Below the pieces are notes generated by a model. The model did not search any database. It was given only the letters and a program-made list of their open reading frames with translations, and was not told the origin of the DNA. The position numbers were made by a program, and so were the translations under genes. Shown here one piece after another: positions 5,999 to 56,217 of a stretch of 64,000 nucleotides of DNA (its first letter is position 1; every line of letters starts with the position of its first letter). Location of the stretch: the NCBI GenBank assembly GCA_963759775.1, contig CAVXAH010000001.1, positions 208,682 through 272,681 of the forward strand, read 5' to 3'. This DNA is from an uncultured bacterium. GTDB lineage: Bacteria; Patescibacteriota; Minisyncoccia; Phycocordibacterales; Phycocordibacteraceae.

Positions 5999-6925
5999 TC
6001 ACTCTTCCCTTTCCAGACAGTAAGTGCCTCTTCCTGCAGCGCACGGGCATACGAAAATGTGAGCGGCCATGGCGCGCTTGAGGCAAGAGCGGCGCACGTA
6101 ATCGCCTGTAGGTTCTAGAGTTGCTTGGTCTGGGGTTTGTCCGCCTGAAAGAAACACAATGCCCGCCACCTCCTTTGGAACCGTCTTCATGAGTACCGCG
6201 ACCGTGTCCTCCGCCACCTCTTCCGGCGTATCTTTCTTTCCGCTTTCGCTTCCAGAAATCGCCATTGCGGTTTTGAGTATCACTCCCGGGAGGTCTACCG
6301 CCTGCTCATGCAGTACGTGAAAAAGTGCGCCGAGCGTTTCTTGCAAGACTTCCTTCGCACGAGCGCGCGAGTGCCTACCCGAAAGAAGTACTTCCGGCTC
6401 AAGGATAGGCACGAGACCTGCCTTTTGTGCCTCTTTCGCATAGCTTGCGAGACGTTTTACGTTTTCAAGAATCGCAGCAGAAGTGGGCAGCTTGTCGCCT
6501 TCAATACGAATGACTGCGCGCCATTTTGTAAACACCGCCCCCCGGTCGGCAAAGGTTTTGAGCCGCTCCGGCAAACCAAGGAGTCCTTTGGTAATAAGCT
6601 CATTCGCGCTTTCCAAAAAGGGCTCCGTACCCTCATCTACTTTTATACCTGGGGCAATACCGCGCTGTGCGAGAGATGTGGTAAAAAGCATGCCGTCCTC
6701 GCCTTCTTGTACAAATGTTTCTGCAAATAAAATGACCCCTGAAAGGTAGTCCGGAACGCCTGGCGCGTTTAAGAAAAGTTCGCGAAACTTCTTGCGCATT
6801 TCAAGCGTCGTATCAATACCATAGGAAGCAAGACGCTTGTCAGCAGAAGACACGCTCTCGTCGGCTGCGAGAATGCCTTTCCCGGGAGATACGAGGGCAC
6901 GTGCGCGCTCTCTAAGGTCCATCAT
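5999..6925 (-). CDS. fba: fructose-bisphosphate aldolase, class I (frame lost near 6115; homologous C-terminus continues to 5926)
   Basis: GKGILAADESVSSADKRL and FLSGGQ are class I aldolase motifs. After ...DQATL the conserved NLQAIT..SSAPWPLTFSYARALQEEAL continues in another frame to TAG 5926-5928. Confidence 0.85.
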   Translation of the reverse strand: MMDLRERARALVSPGKGILAADESVSSADKRLASYGIDTTLEMRKKFRELFLNAPGVPDYLSGVILFAETFVQEGEDGMLFTTSLAQRGIAPGIKVDEGTEPFLESANELITKGLLGLPERLKTFADRGAVFTKWRAVIRIEGDKLPTSAAILENVKRLASYAKEAQKAGLVPILEPEVLLSGRHSRARAKEVLQETLGALFHVLHEQAVDLPGVILKTAMAISGSESGKKDTPEEVAEDTVAVLMKTVPKEVAGIVFLSGGQTPDQATLEPTGDYVRRSCLKRAMAAHIFVCPCAAGRGTYCLEREE

Positions 6926-6958
6926 GCGTGGATTTTAGCATGCTAAAATCCACGCATG
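6923..6958. promoter_or_regulatory. 36-bp perfect palindrome, candidate divergent leaderless promoter/operator between fba and the PfkB kinase
   Basis: Sequence is CATGCGTGGATTTTAGCATGCTAAAATCCACGCATG. Each arm reads TGcTAAAAT-N6-ATG. The left CAT is the fba start codon. Confidence 0.6.
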
Positions 6959-6961
6959 GAT

Positions 6962-7078
6962 CCCGTTAGAAGCCGCGGTCGCTGTGGTAAAATCTCGGAT
7001 ATCATATGAAACTGAGCATTTTTAGTAGCTGTGCGTTAACCAAGTTGAGTCGCCTGACCGCGACCTGCTTCTAACGGG
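6962..7078 (+). mobile_element. ORF-less miniature inverted-repeat element (CCCGTTAGA family)
   Basis: Termini are CCCGTTAGAAGC / GCTTCTAACGGG, with sub-terminal complementarity. It is flanked by direct repeats ATGGA (6956-6960, 7079-7083). Confidence 0.6.
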
Positions 7079-8074
7079 ATGGAACAATCGCTTGATTTCG
7101 TCGCCATTGGCGACACCGCCGTTGACGAATTTATCCGGCTCAAGGACGCCACGGTGCATTGCGATATAAACAGTGAAAACTGCACCATTTCTATGAAGTG
7201 GGGCGATAAAATCCCTTTTGAGTATTCGGTGTTGGTAGCGGGTGTTGGAAACGCCGCAAACGCGGCGGTTGCCGCCGCGCGCCTTGGGCTCCGTGCGGGA
7301 TTCGTCTCAAACGTAGGTGATGACTCCTACGGAAAGGAGATTCTCACCGCCTTTGCGCGGGAAGGTGTAGACGCGAGCGGTGTCGCGGTGAATGCAGGTA
7401 TGGTGACGAACCATCACTACGTGCTTTGGTATGAGTCAGAACGTACGATTCTCATTAAACACGAAGACTACCCGTACGCGCTCCCGAAAAATTTTACTGC
7501 GCCCCGCTGGATTTATCTCTCGTCCGCTGGCGCACGCTCCGAAGCTTTTCATAGTGAGCTTGCGACGTGGCTTGTTGCACACCCCGAAACGAAACTCGCC
7601 TTTCAACCGGGCACCTTCCAAATGAAAATAGGAAAAGCAAAACTCGCCGGGCTTTATGCACGAACTGATCTTCTCGCGGTAAACAAAGAGGAAGCGGAGC
7701 GCATTTTGGAGCGCGACAAAGACGAGATTACAAATCTGCTCCGAGATCTCCACGCGCTTGGACCAAAAATCGTACTCATCACTGATGGCCCAAAGGGCGC
7801 GTATGCCTATGACGGAAAAGATATGTTCACGGTACCCATGTATCCCGACCCAAAACCCGCCTTTGAGCGGACCGGCGCGGGAGATGCCTGCACCTCTACC
7901 ATCGTTGCGGCACTCGCGCTCGGAAAGCCACTTGCCGAAGCGCTTCTGTGGGGACCAGTGAATTCAATGTCAGTCGTGCAAGAAATCGGCGCACAAAAAG
8001 GGCTTCTCGCTCGCCCTGCACTTGAAAAATATCTTGAAAACGCTCCAAAAACGTATACGGTGAGTCCGTTTTAG
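7079..8074 (+). CDS. PfkB-family carbohydrate kinase
   Basis: GVGNAANAAVAAARLG and C-terminal TGAGDACTSTIVAAL are PfkB signatures. Confidence 0.8.
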   Translation: MEQSLDFVAIGDTAVDEFIRLKDATVHCDINSENCTISMKWGDKIPFEYSVLVAGVGNAANAAVAAARLGLRAGFVSNVGDDSYGKEILTAFAREGVDASGVAVNAGMVTNHHYVLWYESERTILIKHEDYPYALPKNFTAPRWIYLSSAGARSEAFHSELATWLVAHPETKLAFQPGTFQMKIGKAKLAGLYARTDLLAVNKEEAERILERDKDEITNLLRDLHALGPKIVLITDGPKGAYAYDGKDMFTVPMYPDPKPAFERTGAGDACTSTIVAALALGKPLAEALLWGPVNSMSVVQEIGAQKGLLARPALEKYLENAPKTYTVSPF

Positions 8075-8394: not shown

Positions 8395-9384
8395 TTATTT
8401 TACAAATGAACGTGCCGCGTCCACAATCGCCGGCGCATTTAGCTTGTAGTGAGCAAGAAGTTCATCGGGGGTTCCTGACTGCCCAAACTCGTTATGAAGC
8501 CCCATAAACCGCATGGGAACAGGATAAAGCTCCGCGAGCGCTTCAGCAACCGCGCTACCAAAGCCCCCAGCAACCTGATGCTCTTCAATAGTGATGACGC
8601 GGCCCGCGCGTTTCGCCGCATGCACCACTGCATCTGTATCAAGTGGCTTCACGGTTGGCACGTGAAGCACGATTGACCCTATGCCTTCTGCGGCAAGCGC
8701 GCGGGCCGCAAGCAACACTTCGTAGGAGAGCGCGCCGGTAGAGAGCAGGGCGACGCGCGGCTTTTTGTCTTCAAAGAGAATTGTCGCTTTCCCAATTGAA
8801 AATGAGGTCTCTGGAGTGGTAAAGACAGGTGTTGCCGCGCGTCCAAACCGCAGATAGGTGGGCGTCTTGGTTTTCGCGGCCGCGAGAACTGCTTTCCTCG
8901 CTTCCTCAGCATCCCCGGGCACGATTACGGTCATGTTGGGAAGCGCGCGCATCATGGCAATGTCTTCAAGCATTTGGTGTGTCGCGCCGTCGGGACCCAC
9001 CGAAACGCCCGCGTGCATTCCGCATATTTTTACGGGCACGTCGTTTAGTGCGATTGTCGTGCGGATCTGTTCGTAATTCCTGCCCGGAGAAAACGCCGCA
9101 TAGGACGCAATAAAAGGCACCTTCCCTATCGCGGCCATACCTGCTGCTACGGTCGCCATGTTCTGCTCAGCGACGCCCATTTCAACAAAGCGTTCTGGAA
9201 ACTCTTTTTCAAAGTCCTCCGCGCGCGTAGACTCTTTAAGGTCTGCACACAACACCACAACTTGTGGGTCCGCCTTCCCCGCCTCCACCACACCCTTCCC
9301 AAACCCGTCGCGCGTCGGCTTTTTTTCAATATCGTCCGCAAAGACTTTTGCGGAAAGTTTTGCGTGTGGGTTAAGCATATTCAT
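8395..9384 (-). CDS. transketolase, C-terminal half (pyrimidine-binding + C-terminal domains)
   Basis: VAEQNMATVAAGMA and GATHQMLEDIAMMRALPNM are transketolase middle-domain motifs. Confidence 0.85.
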   Translation of the reverse strand: MNMLNPHAKLSAKVFADDIEKKPTRDGFGKGVVEAGKADPQVVVLCADLKESTRAEDFEKEFPERFVEMGVAEQNMATVAAGMAAIGKVPFIASYAAFSPGRNYEQIRTTIALNDVPVKICGMHAGVSVGPDGATHQMLEDIAMMRALPNMTVIVPGDAEEARKAVLAAAKTKTPTYLRFGRAATPVFTTPETSFSIGKATILFEDKKPRVALLSTGALSYEVLLAARALAAEGIGSIVLHVPTVKPLDTDAVVHAAKRAGRVITIEEHQVAGGFGSAVAEALAELYPVPMRFMGLHNEFGQSGTPDELLAHYKLNAPAIVDAARSFVK

Positions 9385-10228
9385 GAGGGACTTTTCCGCC
9401 CATTGAGCGGATTTCTTTCAAAAACCGTTTTGCTTCTTCTTTGGTGGGTGGCTTTCCGTGCCACTTGTAATCAAATTCTATTTCCTTTACGCCCTTGCCC
9501 GGAATCGTGTGCGCAATAATCAATGTCGGCTTTTCAAAAATCGTTTTCGCTTCTTCAACCGCAGATACAAATGCGCGCATATCGTGTCCGTTTACCTCAA
9601 GCACATGCCAGTTAAAGGCGCGGTATTTATCCGCAAGGGGCTCGAGTGGCATAACGTTTTCGGTCATACCATCTATTTGAATGTTATTTCGATCAATAAC
9701 GGCAGTGAGATTTGATAATTTGTTTTTACCTATAAACAACGCCGCCTCCCACGTATTTCCCTCCTCTTGCTCGCCATCACTCATGAGTACGTAGGTTCGG
9801 TTCGTCTTTCCATCCATGCGAAGCGCATATGCCATTCCCCCTGCCTGCGAGAGACCCGAGCCAAGCGGTCCAGAGGTTGTTTCAAGCCCCGGAAGACGCG
9901 TGCGTTCTGGGTGCCCTTGAAGTCGCGTACCAAATTTGCGAAGCGTCAGGCACTCTTTGACGGGGAAATACCCCGCGTGTGCCATAGCGGCATACCGCAC
10001 GGGCGTAATGTGCCCGTTTGAAAGCACAAGTCGATCGCGCTCGGCCCACCCCGTATGTTTTGGATCGTGTTTGAGAATATGAAAATAAAAGGCGGCGAAG
10101 ATGTCCGCCATGCCAAGTGGCCCTGCGGTGTGCCCCGAGCCGGCAGCGACCAACATTTCAATAACGGTCTCGCGGATTTTTTCCGCGTGCGATTCAAGTT
10201 TTTTGATTTCAGTGTCCGTAAGAGCCAT
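9371..10228 (-). CDS. transketolase, N-terminal half (TPP-binding)
   Basis: GSGHTAGPLGMADI and MSDGEQEEGNTWEA. It overlaps the C-terminal-half gene by 14 nt, giving a split transketolase. Confidence 0.85.
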   Translation of the reverse strand: MALTDTEIKKLESHAEKIRETVIEMLVAAGSGHTAGPLGMADIFAAFYFHILKHDPKHTGWAERDRLVLSNGHITPVRYAAMAHAGYFPVKECLTLRKFGTRLQGHPERTRLPGLETTSGPLGSGLSQAGGMAYALRMDGKTNRTYVLMSDGEQEEGNTWEAALFIGKNKLSNLTAVIDRNNIQIDGMTENVMPLEPLADKYRAFNWHVLEVNGHDMRAFVSAVEEAKTIFEKPTLIIAHTIPGKGVKEIEFDYKWHGKPPTKEEAKRFLKEIRSMGGKVPHEYA

Positions 10229-26787: not shown

Positions 26788-26812
26788 CTCTGCACCATAG
26801 CAAACTTATCCG

Positions 26813-26848
26813 GAAAACAATACTACCATATATGGTAGTATTGTTTTC
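26813..26848. promoter_or_regulatory. 36-bp perfect palindrome abutting the yerC-like start codon (candidate operator / bidirectional extended -10 promoter)
   Basis: Sequence is GAAAACAATACTACCATATATGGTAGTATTGTTTTC. It reads TGgTAGTAT-N7-ATG(26849). The core AATACTACCATATATGGTAGTATT recurs at 27304-27345 and 50972-50995. Confidence 0.6.
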
Positions 26849-27280
26849 ATGAAAAAGAAAATAAATGACTTATCGGAAGCCGAACGCATCAAAACACTGG
26901 ACGCGCTCTACACCGCCGCAAGCAGTGTGCATACTCGTGCTGACATGAAAGCCTTCTTACGAGATCTGCTCACGGTGAGTGAGCGTGTGATGCTTGGGCG
27001 ACGTATTCTTATCGCACGCCTTTTGCTCCAAGGAGAGACGCGAGATGCTATACGCACGCGAACTGGTGCAGGGTACGCCACCATAGAGAGAGTGGGACAG
27101 TGGCTTGAAGACCAAATGCCTGGGTATGAGCAGGCTATTACGGGCATGGAGCGCGAATTTAAGACGCGGAGATTTTATATGCACTACAGCGCGCGCGAGG
27201 TATTGCGACGCCTTAAGAAACGCTACCCTCTCCACTTTCTGCTCTTCCCCGAACCATCTTCAAAAAAGAACCGCTCTTAA
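26849..27280 (+). CDS. TrpR-like YerC/YecD family DNA-binding protein
   Basis: LRDLLTVSERVMLGRRILIARLLLQGETRDAIRTRTGAGYATIERV matches the YerC/YecD Trp-repressor-like family. Confidence 0.75.
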   Translation: MKKKINDLSEAERIKTLDALYTAASSVHTRADMKAFLRDLLTVSERVMLGRRILIARLLLQGETRDAIRTRTGAGYATIERVGQWLEDQMPGYEQAITGMEREFKTRRFYMHYSAREVLRRLKKRYPLHFLLFPEPSSKKNRS

Positions 27281-27303: not shown

Positions 27304-27345
27304 CAAAAGTAGAATACTACCATATATGGTAGTATTCTACTTTTG
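27304..27345. promoter_or_regulatory. 42-bp perfect palindrome between convergent yerC-like and secA genes (operator copy and/or terminator)
   Basis: Sequence is CAAAAGTAGAATACTACCATATATGGTAGTATTCTACTTTTG, with the same 24-bp core as at 26813-26848. Confidence 0.55.
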
Positions 27346-39869: not shown

Positions 39870-41006
39870 CTAAAAAGTTTTGTGTAAATCATCCGCGATG
39901 CGGGACGGAATATTTCCTTGTTCAGCGAGGTGCGCCCGGGCTTTCGGTTCGGCGTGCATAGGAAGAGATAAACGAACCTCAGTATCTTCAATAAGTCCGA
40001 CAATGTGGTACGAGAGCGCGGTTGGGTCTGCAACGGGCGCAGAAAGCACGTCCTCGTATCCCTGGAATACCTCGCCCACAATACCGACATCTGTGGTTAT
40101 GATGGGAATTTTCGCGAGTGCGGCTTCAAGAAGAGTCCGTCCGTATCCTTCGTATGCGCTTGCCTGGATGTACGCCTGGGCGCTTTGCATCATTCCCCAC
40201 GCCGTTTCCGCGGGAAGCCAACCCTTCACGAATATCACGCGGTCGGAGAGTCCAAGACGCCGCGCCATGCGCTCGAGCCGTCCTCGCTCCCGCCCTTCCC
40301 CAACAACGACGAGACCGATCATTGGGTAATGCCCTGCAACAAGCTTGAGCGCCGCAAGTATGTCCTCAATGCGTTTCTCGGGCTCCAGCCTGCCTACGGT
40401 GATGAGCGTAAACGTAAAGGGGCGAGTAGGAAGTGGAGCCTTCGGAGGAAGTGTGTAGCCAACTGCAACGGGAATAATCGACGGGTCCGGGATATTTTTT
40501 CCATAGCGCGCAATAAGAGAATCTTTGACGCGTTTTGAAACGACGCGGATACCATTTGCTTTGGGAAGCACCCGATCGGCGATTTTTCGGCGGAAGCGAT
40601 TTAAAAGCGGCATATGCACGCGAGGGGAGCGCCAATTCCCGCTTCGCACGAACCAGGGTGACAGAAAATCCGTATGCACTTGAATGTGAAGTTTTGCATT
40701 CGTCCCCTCAACAGCCTTAAGCGCCGCGAGCCCGTGTTCAAATGGGTCCTGCGCGGACACTATTTCTATATGTTCGGTGTCTATAAGGACGCGCGCGAGC
40801 TTTGCGAGCGCGCGAACTCGAAAGAACTTTGATGCAAACACCGGGTGCAAGTGAAGGGTTCCTTCATCAATACGTAGTGTCCGAGGAGGTGCTGAGGAAA
40901 GAATATGGAGCTCCCCTATTGCCGCGGCGTACGTGCGCATACGCGCGCGCGCAGAGCTTGCGGCATCAAAAATTGAGGGGTCGTTTGAGATAAAGAGGAC
41001 CTTCAT
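39870..41006 (-). CDS. glycosyltransferase, GT4/group 1
   Basis: EGYGRTLLEAALAKIPIITTDVGIVGEV. The true start is MKVLFISND at ATG 41004-41006. The track extension to 41084 reads through the adjacent element. Confidence 0.8.
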   Translation of the reverse strand: MKVLFISNDPSIFDAASSARARMRTYAAAIGELHILSSAPPRTLRIDEGTLHLHPVFASKFFRVRALAKLARVLIDTEHIEIVSAQDPFEHGLAALKAVEGTNAKLHIQVHTDFLSPWFVRSGNWRSPRVHMPLLNRFRRKIADRVLPKANGIRVVSKRVKDSLIARYGKNIPDPSIIPVAVGYTLPPKAPLPTRPFTFTLITVGRLEPEKRIEDILAALKLVAGHYPMIGLVVVGEGRERGRLERMARRLGLSDRVIFVKGWLPAETAWGMMQSAQAYIQASAYEGYGRTLLEAALAKIPIITTDVGIVGEVFQGYEDVLSAPVADPTALSYHIVGLIEDTEVRLSLPMHAEPKARAHLAEQGNIPSRIADDLHKTF

Positions 41007-41117
41007 CCCGTTAGAAATAGCAGACGCCTGCATCCCCTCAGTATGTAGCATGTTAGGTTTTTGTGACATGATTTTGTCGTACAAGCACTAGAGCGTCTGC
41101 GTCTTATTTCTAACGGG
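41007..41117 (-). mobile_element. ORF-less miniature inverted-repeat element (CCCGTTAGA family)
   Basis: The left arm reads CCCGTTAGAAATAGCAGACGC. The right end is GCGTCTGCGTCTTATTTCTAACGGG on the plus strand (reverse complement CCCGTTAGAAATAAGACGCAGACGC). Flanking direct repeat is TTCAT (41002-41006, 41119-41123), i.e. ATGAA on the coding strand. Confidence 0.65.
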
Positions 41118-41119
41118 AT

Positions 41120-42205
41120 TCATGGTGCTTGGAGCGTCTCTACCGTTGCGGTAAGCATGTTTTCAACAGAATACCGTTTGGCAGACTCCTCTGCACGTGC
41201 CGAGAGGTCCCTACGTATTTGGTCGTCTCCAAGCACTTTTCTAAGGGCGTTTTGCAGTGCGACGGAGTCTTCATGCGGGAAAAGGATTCCCATCTTTTCG
41301 TCACTGATGACTTCCGGGTTTCCGCCAACATTTGTCGCGACGACTGGTACGCCGAGCGAAACTGCTTCAATAAGGAGATGCGAGAGTCCTTCATATGCAG
41401 AATTGAGAACGAATACGTCCGCGCCCTTCATGACTGCAAGCGTATCTCCATGACTCAATACTCCAGTGAAGACGGCGCGACCCGGAAGCGCGTGCTTCGC
41501 TTTTGTCTCAAGCGAAGCACGGTCCGGACCATCACCCACGATCGCGAGGGACGCGCCCGGAATGCTCGAGACCGCGTGAACGACACCCTCTATACCTTTC
41601 CAGGGCACCAGTCGACCAGCTGTGACCACGAGCGGTCGCGGCAAAGCCGCGACCGCCTCCGGCACGTTTCCAACTTCTTCCGTCCTGACCGCATTGTAGA
41701 TAACCGTAATCTTGTCGCTTGGTACTCCCCACGCTTCCACCACACCCTTTAGGTATTTGCTTGGCACGATGACCTTGTGTGCCGCTTCTGCAGTGCGGTT
41801 TTGTATTTTTTGAAGTAGACGCACTTGAAACGACGGCTGTTTTGACTTCACGAATTCGTCGAGAGGCATTGAAACACCAAAACGCTGTCTCCCCTGCTCC
41901 CACGCATAGTCGCCCACAATCTTTACCACAAACGGTTTCCCCGCCCGCTTCGCCGCGTGCATTCCCGGGAGACCAACTGAAACGGGGTCAAGCGCCATAA
42001 CAAGGTCAGCGGTGCGTGCGGCACGGAGCACTCGCCGAAAATATACATAATGACGAAACAGTTTTGGGAAATGACGTACGTCGGAAAATTTCACGAGTTC
42101 AACATGAACGCCGCGCTTTGGCAATTCCTCCGCGAGAATCTTCGCGTAGGTTGCCGGGCCGCCAATTTCAGGCGGATACAAGGGTGTCGCGATGACGAGC
42201 TTCAT
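41120..42205 (-). CDS. glycosyltransferase, GT4/group 1
   Basis: EGLSHLLIEAVSLGVPVVATNVGGNPEVI. The true start is MKLVIATPLYPPEIGGPATY at ATG 42203-42205. The track extension to 42355 is antisense GIY-YIG sequence. Confidence 0.8.
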   Translation of the reverse strand: MKLVIATPLYPPEIGGPATYAKILAEELPKRGVHVELVKFSDVRHFPKLFRHYVYFRRVLRAARTADLVMALDPVSVGLPGMHAAKRAGKPFVVKIVGDYAWEQGRQRFGVSMPLDEFVKSKQPSFQVRLLQKIQNRTAEAAHKVIVPSKYLKGVVEAWGVPSDKITVIYNAVRTEEVGNVPEAVAALPRPLVVTAGRLVPWKGIEGVVHAVSSIPGASLAIVGDGPDRASLETKAKHALPGRAVFTGVLSHGDTLAVMKGADVFVLNSAYEGLSHLLIEAVSLGVPVVATNVGGNPEVISDEKMGILFPHEDSVALQNALRKVLGDDQIRRDLSARAEESAKRYSVENMLTATVETLQAP

Positions 42206-42486
42206 CCCGTTAGAGATAGGAAACGCTTTAGCCGGTTTTTGAGATACCGTTTGCCCGTCCCGGTTTTCAGGTACTTCTCTCGAGCTTCCGCGTCCTCCAG
42301 GTTGTGACATGCTTCGTAATATATCAGTTCGTACGGACGGTGCTTTTTTGTCCAACCGCGAGACCCTTTTTGATGCTGGCTGAAGCGTTTCCGTAAATCA
42401 TTTGTGACCCCCGTGTACCAATAATCGCTCGTGAGGCTTTTGATGACGTACACATAACACATTTTGTTATCTCTAACGGGATTCAT
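42202..42486 (-). CDS. GIY-YIG nuclease family protein (UPF0213/COG2827 type)
   Basis: MCYVYVIKSLTSDYWYTGVTNDLRKRFSQHQKG...YYEAC...AREKYLK matches the GIY-YIG pattern. The conserved start is ATG 42460-42462. The upstream in-frame ATG 42484-42486 lies in the duplicated target. Confidence 0.85.
   Translation of the reverse strand: MNPVRDNKMCYVYVIKSLTSDYWYTGVTNDLRKRFSQHQKGSRGWTKKHRPYELIYYEACHNLEDAEAREKYLKTGTGKRYLKNRLKRFLSLTG
42206..42480 (-). mobile_element. 275-bp inverted-repeat-bounded GIY-YIG cassette, copy 1
   Basis: Termini are CCCGTTAGAGATA / TATCTCTAACGGG. Flanking direct repeat is TTCAT (42201-42205, 42482-42486). It is identical to 43630-43904 except at 2 positions. Confidence 0.7.
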
Positions 42487-42495
42487 AACCCTATT

Positions 42496-43629
42496 CTAAC
42501 GGCTTACAAACAGCTGGTCGAATATCCTACGCATCGTAGAACTGATCAGGTTCCAATCATATTTTTCTGTAACCATCTTGAGTGCATTTGCCGTAACCTC
42601 GTTTGCTTTCTCCGGCCGCGCCAAAATATCTTTCACCGCTTCAGCAATCTGCTCCGGTGAGTTTTTATCAACCGCCCAACCAGTCGTCGCCTTATCGGGA
42701 TTGCGTTTTTCGTCATATAGAAAATCTGCGATGCCTCCCTCTTGAGTTGTTATCACCGGAAGTCCGGCGGCCATTGCTTCCATAAACGAAACCCCGAAGC
42801 CTTCGGTCCTTGAGGGGCGAATAAAGATGTCGGCCGCATGCAAATACTGAGGAATACCAGCTCGGTCGACATGACCGAGAAACTCCACACGATTTTCTAT
42901 CTTGAGTTTTTTCACTAACGCCTTGAGTGAACCCTCTTCCGGCCCACTGCCGAGTATTTGAAATTGCACCGAATCAGGCAACAGACGGAGAGCCTTTATA
43001 ACATCGTCAATCGCATTTTTATGCACAAGTCTTGAGGTCGTAATAAGTACGGTCTCCCTGTGTGAAATTGGTGCCCCTGCAAACTTCGTTACATCGACTC
43101 CGTTCGGCACGAGGTGAATTGCTCCTTTGAAATGCCGTGCGCGTGCCCACTTGGCGAGATAATTTGAAAGCGGCAGTACCACCTTCGCCTTAGTAAACGC
43201 TTGCGCAAAAAGTGGCCAGAGCGGCAACATCGTACGCTCAATATGCGCTATAGGGTCCCCTTCTTGGAGACTGAGCGCATACGGTACCTCCGGATGAAAG
43301 GTGTGAAAATGTGCGGCAGGAATGCCTGATGAGTGCGCCATCATAGCCCACGCCGCATCAAAATGATGTTCTTTATGGAGTGCTGCTGCCTTGCGAGCCG
43401 CTGTGTATTGAAAAAAAAGTTTGCTCAACCTTCCGTTGCTACTTCCGATACGGTGTACAAACACATTGCCGATTTTTTCTTCACGTTTCTCCAAGACGGA
43501 GAAACGCATGGTCACCATGTGAAATTCAATTTCCTTCGGATCAATCCGGTCCGTAACTTCTTTGATCGCCACTTCAGCCCCGCCCACGTGTGGATAGTAT
43601 GCGAGAGAGAAAATAAGCACGCGCTTCAT
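42496..43629 (-). CDS. glycosyltransferase, GT4/group 1
   Basis: EGFGVSFMEAMAAGLPVITTQEGGIADFL. The true start is MKRVLIFSLAYYPHVGGAEV at ATG 43627-43629. Confidence 0.8.
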   Translation of the reverse strand: MKRVLIFSLAYYPHVGGAEVAIKEVTDRIDPKEIEFHMVTMRFSVLEKREEKIGNVFVHRIGSSNGRLSKLFFQYTAARKAAALHKEHHFDAAWAMMAHSSGIPAAHFHTFHPEVPYALSLQEGDPIAHIERTMLPLWPLFAQAFTKAKVVLPLSNYLAKWARARHFKGAIHLVPNGVDVTKFAGAPISHRETVLITTSRLVHKNAIDDVIKALRLLPDSVQFQILGSGPEEGSLKALVKKLKIENRVEFLGHVDRAGIPQYLHAADIFIRPSRTEGFGVSFMEAMAAGLPVITTQEGGIADFLYDEKRNPDKATTGWAVDKNSPEQIAEAVKDILARPEKANEVTANALKMVTEKYDWNLISSTMRRIFDQLFVSR

Positions 43630-43910
43630 CCCGTTAGAGATAGGAAACGCTTCAGGCGGTTTTTGAGATACCGTTTGCCCGTCCCGGTTTTCAGGTACTT
43701 CTCTCGAGCTTCCGCGTCCTCCAGGTTGTGACATGCTTCGTAATATATCAGTTCGTACGGACGGTGCTTTTTTGTCCAACCGCGAGACCCTTTTTGATGC
43801 TGGCTGAAGCGTTTCCGTAAATCATTTGTGACCCCCGTGTACCAATAATCGCTCGTGAGGCTTTTGATGACGTACACATAACACATTTTGTTATCTCTAA
43901 CGGGACTCAT
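43626..43910 (-). CDS. GIY-YIG nuclease family protein (second copy)
   Basis: Same protein as 42202..42486 from codon 9 onward. It differs only at residue 2 (S for N), which lies outside the inverted repeat. Confidence 0.85.
   Translation of the reverse strand: MSPVRDNKMCYVYVIKSLTSDYWYTGVTNDLRKRFSQHQKGSRGWTKKHRPYELIYYEACHNLEDAEAREKYLKTGTGKRYLKNRLKRFLSLTG
43630..43904 (-). mobile_element. 275-bp inverted-repeat-bounded GIY-YIG cassette, copy 2
   Basis: Same termini as copy 1. Flanks are CTTCAT / ACTCAT (ATGA on the coding strand). The upstream gene's stop TGA and the downstream gene's ATG both lie in the flanks. Confidence 0.7.
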
Positions 43911-50518: not shown

Positions 50519-51811
50519 CTATTGTTTTAGTACTAAATTATCTGCAATCTTGTATATATCTCCAGCGCCCATGGTCATGACAGCATCACCCTCTTTTGGT
50601 TCATTCCCAAATAAACGTTCAATTTCTTCAAAGGTGGACGCTGATGCATTTTGACCGTTGCCGCGAATACGCTCTGCAAGCAGTGCGCTTGAAATAGATT
50701 TGTCTGGCTTTTCGCGCGCAGCATAAATGGGGGCGATCACAACTTCATCAGTGTCAACAAATGCAGCCGCAAAGTCCTCAAACAAATCACGCGTGCGACT
50801 GTAGAGGTGAGGGTGAAATGCGACGAACACTTTTCCTTTCGTCTGCGCACGGAGCGCTTTGAGTGTTTCTTTTATTGCCGTCGGGTGGTGTGCGTAGTCG
50901 TCATACACCTCTGCCCCGTTCTTCGTCTTCCCTTTGTATTCAAAACGTCGCCATGTGCCTTGAAAGTCAGCAATACTACCATATATGGTAGTATTCTCGA
51001 CCTTGGGGAGAATAAAACGTGCGGCGGCAAGTGCGGCGCGCGCGTTCATGCGGTTAAATTCGCCCGGGAGTTTGAGTGGAGGCACTTCCTCTTTGGTGTA
51101 GTCGATGATGTGGGCCCGCGCCTCGCGGAGCACTTCTTTGATGTTTGGATTATTTGGATCGGTAACGATCGCACCGTCTGCGGGTACGCGGGCAACGGCT
51201 TTTCGGAAGGTGTCTTGGAGGGCGACGAGCGAGGGAAACCAGTCCGTGTGGTCCCACTCAAGATTCGTAATAACGAGAATGTGCGGCGAGAGCTCAAGAA
51301 GATGGTCTCTGTATTCGCATGCCTCAACCACAAAGAGGTCGTTTGCTCCATCTGCAAGATAGTTACTCCCGAAATCTTTCACGATTGAACCTATGATGGC
51401 AGTTGGGTGCGCCCCCGCGTCTTTCAAAATTTTGGCGAGCATGCCGGTTGTAGTCGTCTTCCCATGCGTCCCCGAGATGGCGATGGTACGCTTCCCTGCC
51501 GAGACTTTTCCAAGCATCCCGAAATATGAAAGCTGTGGAATGCCGAGCTCTTTTGCGCGAGCGCGCTCGGGGTTGCTTTCCGGTACTGCGTCGCTGTACA
51601 CCACTGCCTCGACACCTGACGGAACATTTTCCTTTTTCTGTCCTATCTTGACCTTGATACCCTTGGATTCAAGAAGAACCGTTGTAGCAGACGCTTCGCG
51701 ATCAGAACCGGAAACAGTCGCACCTTCGTGTGCGAACAGCTGCGCAAGTGCCGACATACCGATACCACCGATGCCGACAAAATGAATTCGCTTTGGGTGT
51801 TTATACGCCAT
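50519..51811 (-). CDS. murC: UDP-N-acetylmuramate--L-alanine ligase
   Basis: IHFVGIGGIGMSALAQLF and ISGTHGKTTTTGM. Confidence 0.9.
   Translation of the reverse strand: MAYKHPKRIHFVGIGGIGMSALAQLFAHEGATVSGSDREASATTVLLESKGIKVKIGQKKENVPSGVEAVVYSDAVPESNPERARAKELGIPQLSYFGMLGKVSAGKRTIAISGTHGKTTTTGMLAKILKDAGAHPTAIIGSIVKDFGSNYLADGANDLFVVEACEYRDHLLELSPHILVITNLEWDHTDWFPSLVALQDTFRKAVARVPADGAIVTDPNNPNIKEVLREARAHIIDYTKEEVPPLKLPGEFNRMNARAALAAARFILPKVENTTIYGSIADFQGTWRRFEYKGKTKNGAEVYDDYAHHPTAIKETLKALRAQTKGKVFVAFHPHLYSRTRDLFEDFAAAFVDTDEVVIAPIYAAREKPDKSISSALLAERIRGNGQNASASTFEEIERLFGNEPKEGDAVMTMGAGDIYKIADNLVLKQ
50972..50995. promoter_or_regulatory. 24-bp perfect palindrome inside murC, identical to the yerC-flanking core
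   Basis: AATACTACCATATATGGTAGTATT encodes NTTIYGSI of MurC. Confidence 0.55.

Positions 51812-54726: not shown

Positions 54727-56217
<1,491 letters not shown>

Follow-up and report, generated by a model that had tools for sequence, protein, structure and literature searches.

An ORF-less hairpin element at the start codon of a sugar-kinase gene and its family of GIY-YIG-encoding relatives in Patescibacteria

Introduction

E1, a 119-bp segment in front of a sugar-kinase gene, is a real insertion and belongs to a family of elements with hairpin-forming ends, the full-length members of which encode a GIY-YIG nuclease. Sequence comparison indicates that E1 entered the kinase start codon (at TGGA) after the split from relatives with 75-85% identical kinases. 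The family is widespread in Patescibacteria and apparently undescribed: the searchable literature (GIY-YIG or MITE in CPR/Patescibacteria, and the repeat sequence) holds no description of it, the nearest account being a survey of rRNA insertions (PMC11270868). The explanation preferred here, considered likely with the mechanistic steps given below included, places E1 in this start-codon-inserting GIY-YIG family as a MITE-like hairpin that is not autonomous. The window is the whole stretch of DNA analysed (64,000 nucleotides), and all coordinates refer to it.

The insertion and the kinase locus

The features of the locus are the following.

5999..6925, minus strand: class-I fructose-bisphosphate aldolase CDS (Pfam PF00274, E 1.4e-85), the divergent neighbour; the palindrome begins on the left with its ATG, 6925-6923
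6923..6958, no strand: perfect 36-bp palindrome bounded by the aldolase ATG and the original ATG of the kinase; contains two back-to-back extended -10 boxes
6932..6940, minus strand: mirror copy of the extended -10 box, TGCTAAAAT, separated by 6 nt from the aldolase ATG downstream of it
6941..6949, plus strand: extended -10 box TGCTAAAAT, separated by 6 nt from ATG 6956 downstream of it; a kinase transcript without a leader is predicted from it
6956..7009, plus strand: 17-codon upstream ORF encoding MDPVRSRGRCGKISDII, from the original ATG to the TGA at 7007-7009, through the 5' arm of the stem
6957..6960, plus strand: TGGA, the target-site duplication in its left copy; together with A6956 it makes up the start codon that the kinase had originally
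6961..7079, plus strand: E1, ORF-less MITE-like hairpin element of the T-CCCGTTAGA family, 119 bp (from repeats, fold and copy comparison)
6961..6973, plus strand: left terminal inverted repeat TCCCGTTAGAAGC (from the sequence)
6974..6980, plus strand: 5' arm of the second stem, CGCGGTC (from the fold and compensatory changes over 80 copies)
7056..7062, plus strand: 3' arm of the second stem, GACCGCG (from the fold and copy comparison)
7063..7066, plus strand: conserved 4-nt bulge ACCT on the arm adjoining the host ATG, parting the terminal stem from the 7-bp second stem
7067..7079, plus strand: right terminal inverted repeat GCTTCTAACGGGA; its final base supplies the A of the kinase ATG now in place
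7079..8074, plus strand: PfkB-family carbohydrate kinase CDS, intact (Pfam PF00294, E 2.2e-34)
7080..7083, plus strand: right copy of the target-site duplication, TGGA (from the sequence and family statistics)

E1 shows four of the features by which MITEs are recognized. It is small and non-coding, the 17-codon ORF being the only one from the flanking ATG. Its terminal inverted repeats, TCCCGTTAGAAGC and GCTTCTAACGGGA, pair perfectly at 13/13 bp. TGGA stands on both sides of it, and the empty site in the orthologous locus L081 holds a single ATGGAA. Finally, elements of its kind are multi-copy and polymorphic for presence and absence, with 4 in the window, copies on at least 120 metagenome contigs, and orthologous sites found both with and without an insert. 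The interior of E1 matches no other copy, and what it has in common with them is limited to the ends and the 4 nt adjoining the right repeat.

An earlier note, made from the sequence alone, gave the termini as CCCGTTAGAAGC at 6962-6973 and GCTTCTAACGGG at 7067-7078, where both are found. The sub-terminal complementarity that it described exists as the second stem CGCGGTC/GACCGCG, but the right-hand string quoted for it, GCGACCGCGAC, is absent from the sequence. The ATGGA repeats reported at 6956-6960 and 7079-7083 are likewise present; the family statistics, however, favour a 4-bp TGGA duplication and an extra repeat pair, T6961...A7079, and consequently the A of the kinase ATG belongs to the element. 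The perfect palindrome and the 17-codon ORF from ATG 6956 to TGA 7007-7009 are in the sequence as the note had them.

The kinase N-terminus agrees with its orthologues in alignment, and 331-aa orthologues cover it at 100%. An exact look-up of the kinase sequence matched only a contig record that comes without DNA. The segment is missing in front of the orthologues L081 (83% identity), L082 and L083 (both 75%), which were compared by DNA, and in front of an 85% orthologue on the P0122 contig, which was compared by gene coordinates and has an fba-kinase gap of just 40 bp. In the orthologues with DNA, a -10 box and a 6-nt spacer lead directly into the kinase ATG, as in L081 and L082. The palindrome (16-bp arms, -23.8 kcal/mol, z -8.7) is kept in interrupted form in L082 and L083, where it ends at the kinase ATG. 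The position that the earlier note expected for this ATG in the absence of the insert, at the very end of the palindrome, is thus seen in L082.

These empty sites bear on the reading of the segment as a conserved cis-regulatory leader of the kinase (an attenuator, a thermometer or a riboswitch-like hairpin) instead of an insertion. The segment folds very stably directly upstream of the start codon (-50.2 kcal/mol, z -4.6; both the folding and the fba-kinase comparison had been suggested in the earlier note), as such a leader would. On the other hand, its absence from L081, L082, L083 and the P0122 contig already refutes a conserved leader, elements of the same type precede unrelated genes on hundreds of contigs, and the interior is unconserved and has no Rfam match. 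The earlier note would have given up the insertion had all relatives carried the segment; those compared do not, and its interpretation is supported. The probability left to the leader reading is practically nil.

At the gathering score, no Rfam match was obtained anywhere in the whole window, and a search of 6900-7150 with E up to 10 returned only two chance matches, both on the palindrome. E1 as a group I or group II intron or another curated RNA family was rejected, there being no match to a covariance model of Rfam. A consensus scan found neither a promoter nor a terminator inside E1, and no -10-like hexamer can be read in its right end before the regenerated kinase ATG. A transcript start at 6956 is plausible, since TGCTAAAAT lies 6 nt upstream, the orthologues have the same box and spacing and, over the family as a whole, -10 hexamers are most frequent at 6-7 nt before the left ATG, at the insertion site. 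The lack of a Shine-Dalgarno sequence at the kinase ATG, pointed out in the earlier note, agrees with the sequence; it carries little weight because the 16S rRNA of the host organism is without the CCUCC anti-Shine-Dalgarno motif.

Other elements in the window

The window contains 8 occurrences of the repeat core, CCCGTTAGA, where 0.31 would be expected, and this count was reached in 0/100 shuffles. The occurrences form four inverted pairs, which bears out the proposal that E1 is the fourth member of its family. The other three are listed below.

41006..41118, minus strand: E2, ORF-less, 113 bp, at the start codon of a GT4 glycosyltransferase gene; target-site duplication TGAA on both sides
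42205..42481, minus strand: E3, full-length, 277 bp; GIY-YIG ORF 42202-42486 from a host-derived ATG, its TGA overlapping the regenerated GT4 ATG
43629..43905, minus strand: E4, full-length, 277 bp; GIY-YIG ORF 43626-43910; located at the ATGA junction of an epimerase gene and a GT4 gene

Each of E3 and E4 is filled end to end by the ORF of a 94-aa single-domain GIY-YIG nuclease. The two elements differ at 3/287 positions (99% identity), and their flanks are unrelated (28-31% identity). Neither this nuclease of the 277-bp members nor the Patescibacteria-wide spread of the family was mentioned in the earlier note. The ORFs of 404, 411 and 427 aa that extend over E2-E4 are artefacts, with false N-terminal extensions.

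The family across genomes and metagenomes

The same architecture was found in 243 elements from Patescibacteria genomes and metagenomes. In the metagenome set the terminal 12 nt were fixed by the search pattern, and invariance at these positions is by construction. The ends, T-CCCGTTAGA...TCTAACGGG-A, co-vary as base pairs. In 199 of the 243 elements T..A forms the outermost pair, and in 39 C..G does; repeat position 12 pairs as T-A in 38 elements and as C-G in 35, a change that is synonymous in both codons; and in the second stem of 80 short copies A-T alternates with G-C (36 / 36) and T-A with A-T (70 / 7). The bulge of the short copies is ACCT in 38, ATCT in 32 and TCCT in 6 of the same 80, and full-length elements have TCCT at this position. 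Nearly all of the 76 full-length elements read ATGAAT followed by CCCGTTAGAG..CTCTAACGGG and then ATGAA, and in 76/76 copies the nuclease ORF spans the element exactly, from repeat to repeat.

The 4-bp duplication is exact in 162/243 elements and is mostly TGAA or TGGA. A 5-bp duplication was rejected: it is exact in 138/243 elements, against 162/243 for 4 bp and the extra repeat pair, and it cannot accommodate the C..G subfamily. Co-variation is seen in the flanking repeats (ATGGA/ATGGA 12 times, ATGAG 6, ATGTA 5). Of the 72 elements with a right flank other than ATGAA, 25 have a left flank identical to the right one and 5 have ATGAA on the left. The length of the repeat is not uniform, with 16/201 elements fitting one base shorter and 7/201 one base longer. 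This is untidy for a fixed staggered cut and counts against the preferred explanation.

Target specificity for start codons, which the earlier note had seen supported by E1, is a property of the family: 198/243 related elements adjoin an NTG on one side only. The right-hand ATG opens an ORF of at least 100 codons in 168/198, while two control frames give 2 and 5. E1-type copies occur on at least 120 metagenome contigs, ahead of unrelated genes, and lie in the orientation of the host gene at 80:2. Filled and empty orthologous sites were found reciprocally (L001, L002, L004, L007, L008). The duplication contains TGA in 96% of long and 68% of short elements (p = 6.6e-7).

The family members might be ordinary MITEs that are mobilized in trans by a conventional transposase encoded elsewhere, with the GIY-YIG protein as a passenger or as an addiction-like stabilizing cargo. 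The combination of inverted repeats with a short duplication is the hallmark of transposition of the DDE type; GIY-YIG nucleases, moreover, hydrolyse and are not known to have any strand-joining chemistry. Other observations point away from such a transposase. In 1.36 Mb of element-rich loci the elements fall into two size classes, about 110-119 and 270-279 bp, and nothing larger was found there between the same ends. The nuclease ORF that fills all 76 long copies is under strong purifying selection (median dN/dS 0.11), and base-paired co-variation of the ends at synonymous sites would be needless for a protein-binding site. A conventional transposase in trans is hence judged unlikely.

The GIY-YIG nuclease of the full-length copies

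The protein of E3 and E4 matches the Pfam family PF01541 (GIY-YIG, E 1.9e-17) and is not carried by E1. Scoring covered 3291 homologous cluster representatives at E <= 1e-5, and those named by organism are mostly from Patescibacteria. In a 30-sequence sample the repeat-encoded ends of the protein, MNPVRD and RFLSLTG, are conserved; the motif residues Tyr13, Tyr24, Gly26, Arg32, His38 and Glu58 are invariant and Asn84 is nearly so. An internal Met near the N-terminus is missing in 20/49 intact nuclease ORFs.

The closest sequence relatives of solved structure are 1zg2 (E 1.4e-8), 1ywl (4.8e-4) and Slx1 7wme (1.2e-3). Foldseek, run with a model of mean pLDDT 77, ranked 1zg2, 1ywl and Slx1 7cq2/4xm5 at the top, with probability 0.97-1.0 and TM about 0.5-0.57. 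Sequence and predicted structure thus place the nuclease in the UPF0213/Slx1 branch of GIY-YIG. An exact-sequence look-up of the 94-aa and 86-aa nucleases gave no match, and NCBIfam and PADLOC left the nuclease unmatched. The PHROGs matches were weak, restricted to the catalytic domain and to phage homing-endonuclease families (E about 1e-4).

These phage matches and the GIY-YIG domain itself would suit long copies that are free-standing homing-endonuclease genes, spreading by double-strand-break repair between alleles, with E1 as a remnant decayed after loss of the endonuclease. Long and short copies at the same host gene in different genomes (L010/L128, L025/L186, L036/L192, L063/L158) would suit them as well. 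However, the 94-aa protein is a single domain without a DNA-binding domain, and the many unrelated host genes have just 4-5 bp in common. Inverted repeats and duplications are present and are not products of homing, and E3 and E4 are 99% identical between flanks of 28-31% identity. The family is also nearly absent from viral contigs, with 0 long copies (in 2.9 million contigs searched for these) and 2 short matches. Homing is accordingly regarded as very improbable.

Proposed mechanism

The elements enter start codons at A/TGRA (the slash marks the point of entry), pointing the same way as the host gene, and duplicate 4 bp. In full-length copies the host ATG, formed by the A and the left TG, starts the nuclease ORF of the element, and the right-hand duplicated TGA stops it. 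The terminal A of the element and the right-hand TG rebuild the host ATG, which overlaps the stop (ATGA). Under the preferred explanation, E1 is a non-autonomous member of this family that would have kept only the ends, namely the 13-bp inverted repeat, the 7-bp second stem and the bulge. Full-length copies agree with E1 in their ends, duplication, target and orientation; the GIY-YIG nuclease is their sole protein and the putative transposase. E1 may have been moved in trans by the proteins of such copies, which probably recognize the hairpin or cruciform formed by the paired ends, and host repair would seal the joints. Descent of E1 from a full-length element by deletion is at most a candidate origin, as what they have in common is limited to the ends and the 4 nt adjoining the right repeat.

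In expression, the kinase mRNA would be leaderless from TGCTAAAAT and would now start with the 17-codon ORF. The translation of this ORF would unzip the terminal stem and expose the regenerated kinase AUG. Coupling by termination and reinitiation was rejected as a general mechanism for short copies, and cannot be general, because the ORF of E1 stops 70 nt before the kinase ATG and only in 24/80 does the ORF reach the conserved TAA/TGA by the host ATG. The possibility that the element is read through in frame as part of the host protein, the way of Rickettsia palindromic elements, was also rejected, the host frame being open across 0% of long and 6% of short copies. Hopping of ribosomes between the two AUGGA copies is a further conceivable route, which no observation supports.

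A further possibility concerns the RNA and would add to the DNA-level origin. E1 RNA could be an intervening sequence in which RNase III cuts the terminal stem, leaving a kinase mRNA with a very short leader and an insertion that is near neutral. A stem of 13+7 bp directly adjoins the kinase AUG, and Correia elements are processed by RNase III. This enzyme is retained among the RNases of Patescibacteria (PMC12641178), and CPR rRNA genes tolerate insertions that encode GIY-YIG proteins and are not introns (PMC11270868). Against this, both strands fold equally (sense = antisense, p = 0.58), there is no G-U excess on the sense strand, and cutting would part the full-length ORF from its borrowed start codon. 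The equal folding of both strands means that nothing in it is specific to an RNA-level role of the stem, and processing by RNase III is given a low probability.

A broader proposal is made tentatively, with somewhat less than an even chance of being right. The family may constitute an undescribed class of prokaryotic DNA transposon, with a single-domain GIY-YIG (Slx1/UPF0213-like) protein of about 94 aa as its only protein, which would recognize the paired ends of the element as a hairpin or cruciform and integrate at A/TGRA, and with hairpin derivatives such as E1 that are its MITEs. Possessing neither a start nor a stop codon itself, the element would borrow both from the duplicated target and return a rebuilt start codon to the host gene. 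It would be a parasite of translation-initiation sites suited to the leaderless or overlap-coupled genes of Patescibacteria. If the GIY-YIG protein does move the elements, this nuclease class would join the short list of prokaryotic DNA-transposition enzymes and, at 94 aa, its protein would be the smallest on that list. Start-codon targeting with borrowed start and stop would allow a selfish gene to persist in very compact genomes with the host gene unsilenced. The elements account for thousands of Patescibacteria annotations as 'GIY-YIG nuclease family protein' or 'excinuclease ABC subunit C'. They also create false N-terminal extensions, and they mark true start codons and probable leaderless promoters. 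Finally, E1-type copies before intact genes draw attention to how a start codon is used when it is buried beneath a hairpin of -50 kcal/mol and Shine-Dalgarno pairing is lacking.

Comparison with known systems

Correia elements and other bacterial MITEs resemble E1 in size (about 100-150 bp), in the lack of an ORF and in their perfect terminal inverted repeats and short duplication. They are likewise present in many copies and polymorphic for presence and absence, and they form a stable hairpin in a transcript that they share with the adjacent gene. The family of E1 differs in that its full-length partner encodes a 94-aa GIY-YIG nuclease and not a DDE transposase, and in that its target is a start codon (A/TGRA), whereas theirs is TA. 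The 80:2 orientation bias and the last base that rebuilds the host start codon are further differences.

The IS200/IS605 and REP/RAYT systems have hairpin-forming ends, orientation-specific insertion by a short motif and abundant non-coding hairpin derivatives in common with the family. In contrast to them, the family has no HUH/Y1 transposase, its only ORF being GIY-YIG, and has terminal inverted repeats and a 4-bp duplication. The attC sites of integrons are also imperfect hairpins with extrahelical bases on one arm and strictly oriented insertion; the elements described here differ from them in size and sequence, have no integrase and move themselves.

The T4 Seg proteins and I-TevI have the GIY-YIG catalytic domain and represent selfish genes located between host genes that are not destroyed. 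Of the features of homing endonucleases, the catalytic domain is found in E3 and E4, and a DNA-binding domain and homology-based spread are not. The family differs from these systems in its inverted repeats and duplication, in its many unrelated targets and in its chromosomal location in Patescibacteria instead of phage. In the same phylum, CPR rRNA genes contain GIY-YIG ORFs in insertions that are not introns, which the authors judged to be outside a homing context (PMC11270868). Those insertions sit in rRNA genes, unlike the present ones, and the GIY-YIG passages of the survey are silent on inverted repeats, duplications and start-codon targeting.

The closest systems by sequence and fold are the UPF0213 proteins (BH0048, EF2693) and Slx1, which are minimal single-domain nucleases too. 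They have no known mobility and are without the repeat-encoded MNPVRD and RFLSLTG termini. Slx1, on the other hand, cuts branched and hairpin DNA, an activity that fits an element with pairing ends.

Insertion of E1 at the kinase start codon

E1 is a 119-bp ORF-less hairpin element at the start codon of a PfkB-family kinase gene (7079-8074, plus strand) and belongs to a mobile family; comparison with orthologous sites shows that it was inserted there. Strong conservation of the kinase allowed its locus to be compared with those of the nearest relatives in other genomes and metagenome contigs (L numbers). The aldolase-kinase intergenic distance is 40 bp in an 85%-identical relative. The gap is 66 bp in L081 (83% kinase identity), where ATGGAACAA is present once only, and 40 bp in L082 and L083 (75% identity). 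An earlier note on this DNA had taken relatives with the same segment as the sign against an insertion; the 119 bp are absent from all three loci. In L082 the intergenic sequence is CATGCGAGGATTTTAGCATGC-AGGGGC-ATGCTAAAATCCTCGC-ATGAAGGAA, with the promoter palindrome stopping exactly at the kinase ATG, the junction predicted in that note for a deletion of E1. E1 and its flanks, as read from the window, 5' to 3', are:

...TGCTAAAATCCACGC ATGGA / TCCCGTTAGAAGC CGCGGTC ... GACCGCG ACCT GCTTCTAACGGGA / TGGAACAATCG...

The coordinates reported earlier for the termini, the two ATGGA copies (6956-6960 and 7079-7083), the perfect 36-bp palindrome (6923-6958) and a 17-codon ORF ending at TGA 7007-7009 agree with the window. 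The sub-terminal string quoted with them, GCGACCGCGAC, is absent from the sequence; the actual second stem is CGCGGTC/GACCGCG, with a 4-nt bulge (ACCT) between second and terminal stems. The description of E1 as the fourth member of a repeat family is borne out by the 9-mer CCCGTTAGA, of which the window has eight copies forming four inverted pairs (expected 0.31; 0 of 100 shuffles reach 8). Folding of the segment, proposed earlier as a check, gives -50.2 kcal/mol (z -4.6), and E1 is a MITE by structural definition. No terminator-like site was found in E1 and the kinase ORF downstream is intact.

In a metagenome scan, the termini of E1 were matched on at least 120 contigs. These short copies agree over about 25 nt at either end, second stem and bulge included, and have unrelated interiors. 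Among 80 short copies, the bulge is ACCT in 38, ATCT in 32 and TCCT in 6; full-length copies have TCCT at this position, and therefore long and short copies share polarity.

Full-length members encode a GIY-YIG nuclease

The other members in the window are E2 (113 bp), E3 and E4 (277 bp each), on the minus strand at glycosyltransferase start codons. E3 and E4 are not ORF-less: each contains an ORF of 94 codons that encodes a GIY-YIG domain (PF01541, E 1.9e-17), spans repeat to repeat and reads, on the host-gene strand, ATG AAT CCC GTT AGA GAT ... CTA ACG GGA TGA. They differ at 3 of 287 positions and their flanks are 28-31% identical, so they have been copied recently to different genes. Searching with the protein gave 3291 cluster representatives at E <= 1e-5, and those named by organism are mostly Patescibacteria. 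A scan with each species represented by one genome found 536 relatives, and the best 80 of these 536 loci yielded 74 full-length elements, nearly all of the form ATGAAT/CCCGTTAGAG...CTCTAACGGG/ATGAA. In 30 sampled sequences, conservation outside the catalytic core is highest at the N-terminus MNPVRD and the C-terminus RFLSLTG, which the inverted repeats encode. The nuclease is under purifying selection, with a median dN/dS of 0.11 when the repeat-encoded codons are left out. The protein consists of the catalytic domain only and most resembles, in sequence and predicted fold, the UPF0213 proteins, followed by the structure-specific nuclease Slx1.

The start codon of full-length copies is the host A plus the left TG, and the stop is the TGA of the right duplication. 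TGA is found in the duplication of 96% of long versus 68% of short elements (Fisher p = 6.6e-7), and 20 of 49 intact long-copy ORFs lack a further Met close to the N-terminus. Mechanical ORF calling runs the glycosyltransferase genes upstream into E2-E4 (404, 411 and 427 aa):

39870-41084, minus strand, extended glycosyltransferase ORF
41120-42355, minus strand, extended glycosyltransferase ORF
42496-43779, minus strand, extended glycosyltransferase ORF

Inside E3 and E4, a TGATATATT box, 7 nt and an ATG (42310, 43734) open a frame running into the host gene; such a continuous frame was not found family-wide.

Target site and duplication

Members of the family insert at start codons, in a single orientation, and duplicate 4 bp. 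In a pooled set of 243 elements, an NTG adjoins one side only in 198; 168 of these NTGs open an ORF of at least 100 codons (other frames, 2 and 5), in line with the target named in the earlier note. The bulged arm adjoins the host ATG in 80 E1-type copies, with 2 in the opposite orientation, and 76 of 76 long copies run in the direction of the host gene. Left and right flanks change together (ATGAA/ATGAA 99, ATGGA/ATGGA 12, the class of E1, ATGAG 6, ATGTA 5). In the 72 cases with a right flank other than ATGAA, the left flank is identical to it in 25 and is ATGAA in only 5, which shows a real duplication and not sequence carried along.

Immediately outside CCCG...CGGG stands a T..A pair in 199 elements and a C..G pair in 39, the latter regenerating GTG at start codons, and the repeat is exact in 162 of 243 at 4 bp versus 138 at 5 bp. 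From these counts, the best parse is a 4-bp duplication (TGAA, TGGA, ...) with the outermost pair inside the element. E1 thereby spans 6961-7079 with the duplication TGGA; the ATGGA repeat described earlier is present on both sides, but the A of its right-hand copy, that of the kinase ATG, comes from the element.

A second subfamily (39 of 243; L102, L112, L131, L142, L183, L200, L201, L203 and others) has a C...G outermost pair and repeats as in the main family. Its 4-bp duplications have the form TNNA (TAAA, TTGA, TCAA, TTTA) and lie mostly away from start codons, so the target preference seems to change with the terminal base pair. The duplication copies of E4 are unequal, TGAG upstream (43906-43909) and TGAA downstream (43625-43628). 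The upstream ATGA doubles as a stop/start overlap with an epimerase gene, which places E4 at a translationally coupled junction, not a leaderless start.

Promoter context and initiation

The box TGCTAAAAT lies 6 nt upstream of ATG 6956, with a mirror copy 6 nt upstream of the aldolase ATG, and orthologues keep box and spacing. Over 139 insertion sites, TAnnnT hexamers are most frequent 6-7 nt before the left ATG (23 and 18 versus a background of ~4), and only 20 of the sites have SD-like motifs. The 16S rRNA 3' tail (54727-54770, minus strand) reads ...GGAAUAAUUCC... in place of the usual bacterial GGAUCACCUCCUUA; the CCUCC anti-Shine-Dalgarno is thus missing, which suggests SD-independent initiation in this organism. 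Given the box spacing, the few SD-like motifs and this tail, the kinase gene was very probably leaderless originally. The missing SD at ATG 7079, mentioned in the earlier note, says little with such a 16S rRNA.

The palindrome ATACTACCATATATGGTAGTAT occurs in three copies (26806-26855, 27304-27345, 50963-51004), each consisting of a back-to-back pair of TGGTAGTAT extended -10 boxes; at 26849, one such box is followed by 7 nt and the ATG of a 143-codon ORF. The arrangement TGnTAnnnT, 5-8 nt, ATG precedes eight window ORFs of at least 80 codons and two artefactual frames inside E3/E4. Downstream of the kinase, transketolase is split in two ORFs (8395-10228, minus strand; N-terminal 285 aa, C-terminal 329 aa), a gene order kept in relatives' contigs.

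Mobility and paired ends

Orthologous sites often differ in occupancy. At one gene, L001, L002 and L004 carry an element that L007 and L008 lack; at the next gene the pattern is reversed. The size distribution of the elements is bimodal, 1.36 Mb yielded no larger one with these repeats, and the family is almost absent from viral contigs. In L048 (2763-3161), a short element of 119 bp has entered the regenerated ATGA immediately after a full-length one (...CTAACGGGATGATCCCGTTAGAG...); a rebuilt start codon is thus a target in its turn, and tandem arrays result. Orthologous host genes (55-62% identical) carry a long copy in one genome and a short one in the other (L010/L128, L025/L186, L036+L045/L192, L063/L158), through either in-situ long-to-short decay or repeated hits at the same start codon. 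Just upstream of E3, GCCGTTAGAATAGGG (42487-42505, minus strand) overlaps the stop codon of the upstream glycosyltransferase gene; with one mismatch to CCCGTTAGAA, the element's left repeat, it may be a relic end or chance.

Repeat position 12 in long elements is T-A in 38 and C-G in 35, both synonymous (Asp GAT/GAC, Leu CTA/CTG), and position 11 is A-T in 70, C-G in 4 and G-C in 1. The second stem of short copies varies likewise (A-T 36, G-C 36; T-A 70, A-T 7). These compensatory changes at silent sites argue for ends that base-pair, in RNA or DNA, or for one end copied from the other, over protein-coding constraint. Sense and antisense strands are predicted to fold with equal stability, as a DNA-level structure would.

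Proposed mechanism and comparison with known systems

The GIY-YIG nuclease of the full-length members is the somewhat favoured candidate for mobilising long and short copies, probably by recognising a branched or hairpin structure formed by the paired ends, as Slx1 would. GIY-YIG enzymes are known only to hydrolyse, so the joints would be filled and sealed by host functions. A more tentative proposal concerns expression: ribosomes initiating at the 5'-terminal AUG 6956 might open the stem as they translate its 5' arm (MDPVRSRGR...) and so make the rebuilt kinase AUG accessible; on full-length copies they would terminate at AUGA and restart. RNase III cleavage in the stem would be another route, alternative or additional.

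As partner of E1, the full-length element is not a DDE, HUH, serine or tyrosine transposon. No description of the family was found in Rfam or by full-text literature searches, and it may represent a new class. The closest report found describes GIY-YIG ORFs within insertions, other than introns, in CPR rRNA genes (PMC11270868). A classical homing-endonuclease cassette was also rejected: unlike it, the full-length element has no DNA-binding domain, has repeats and a duplication, and occupies many loci.
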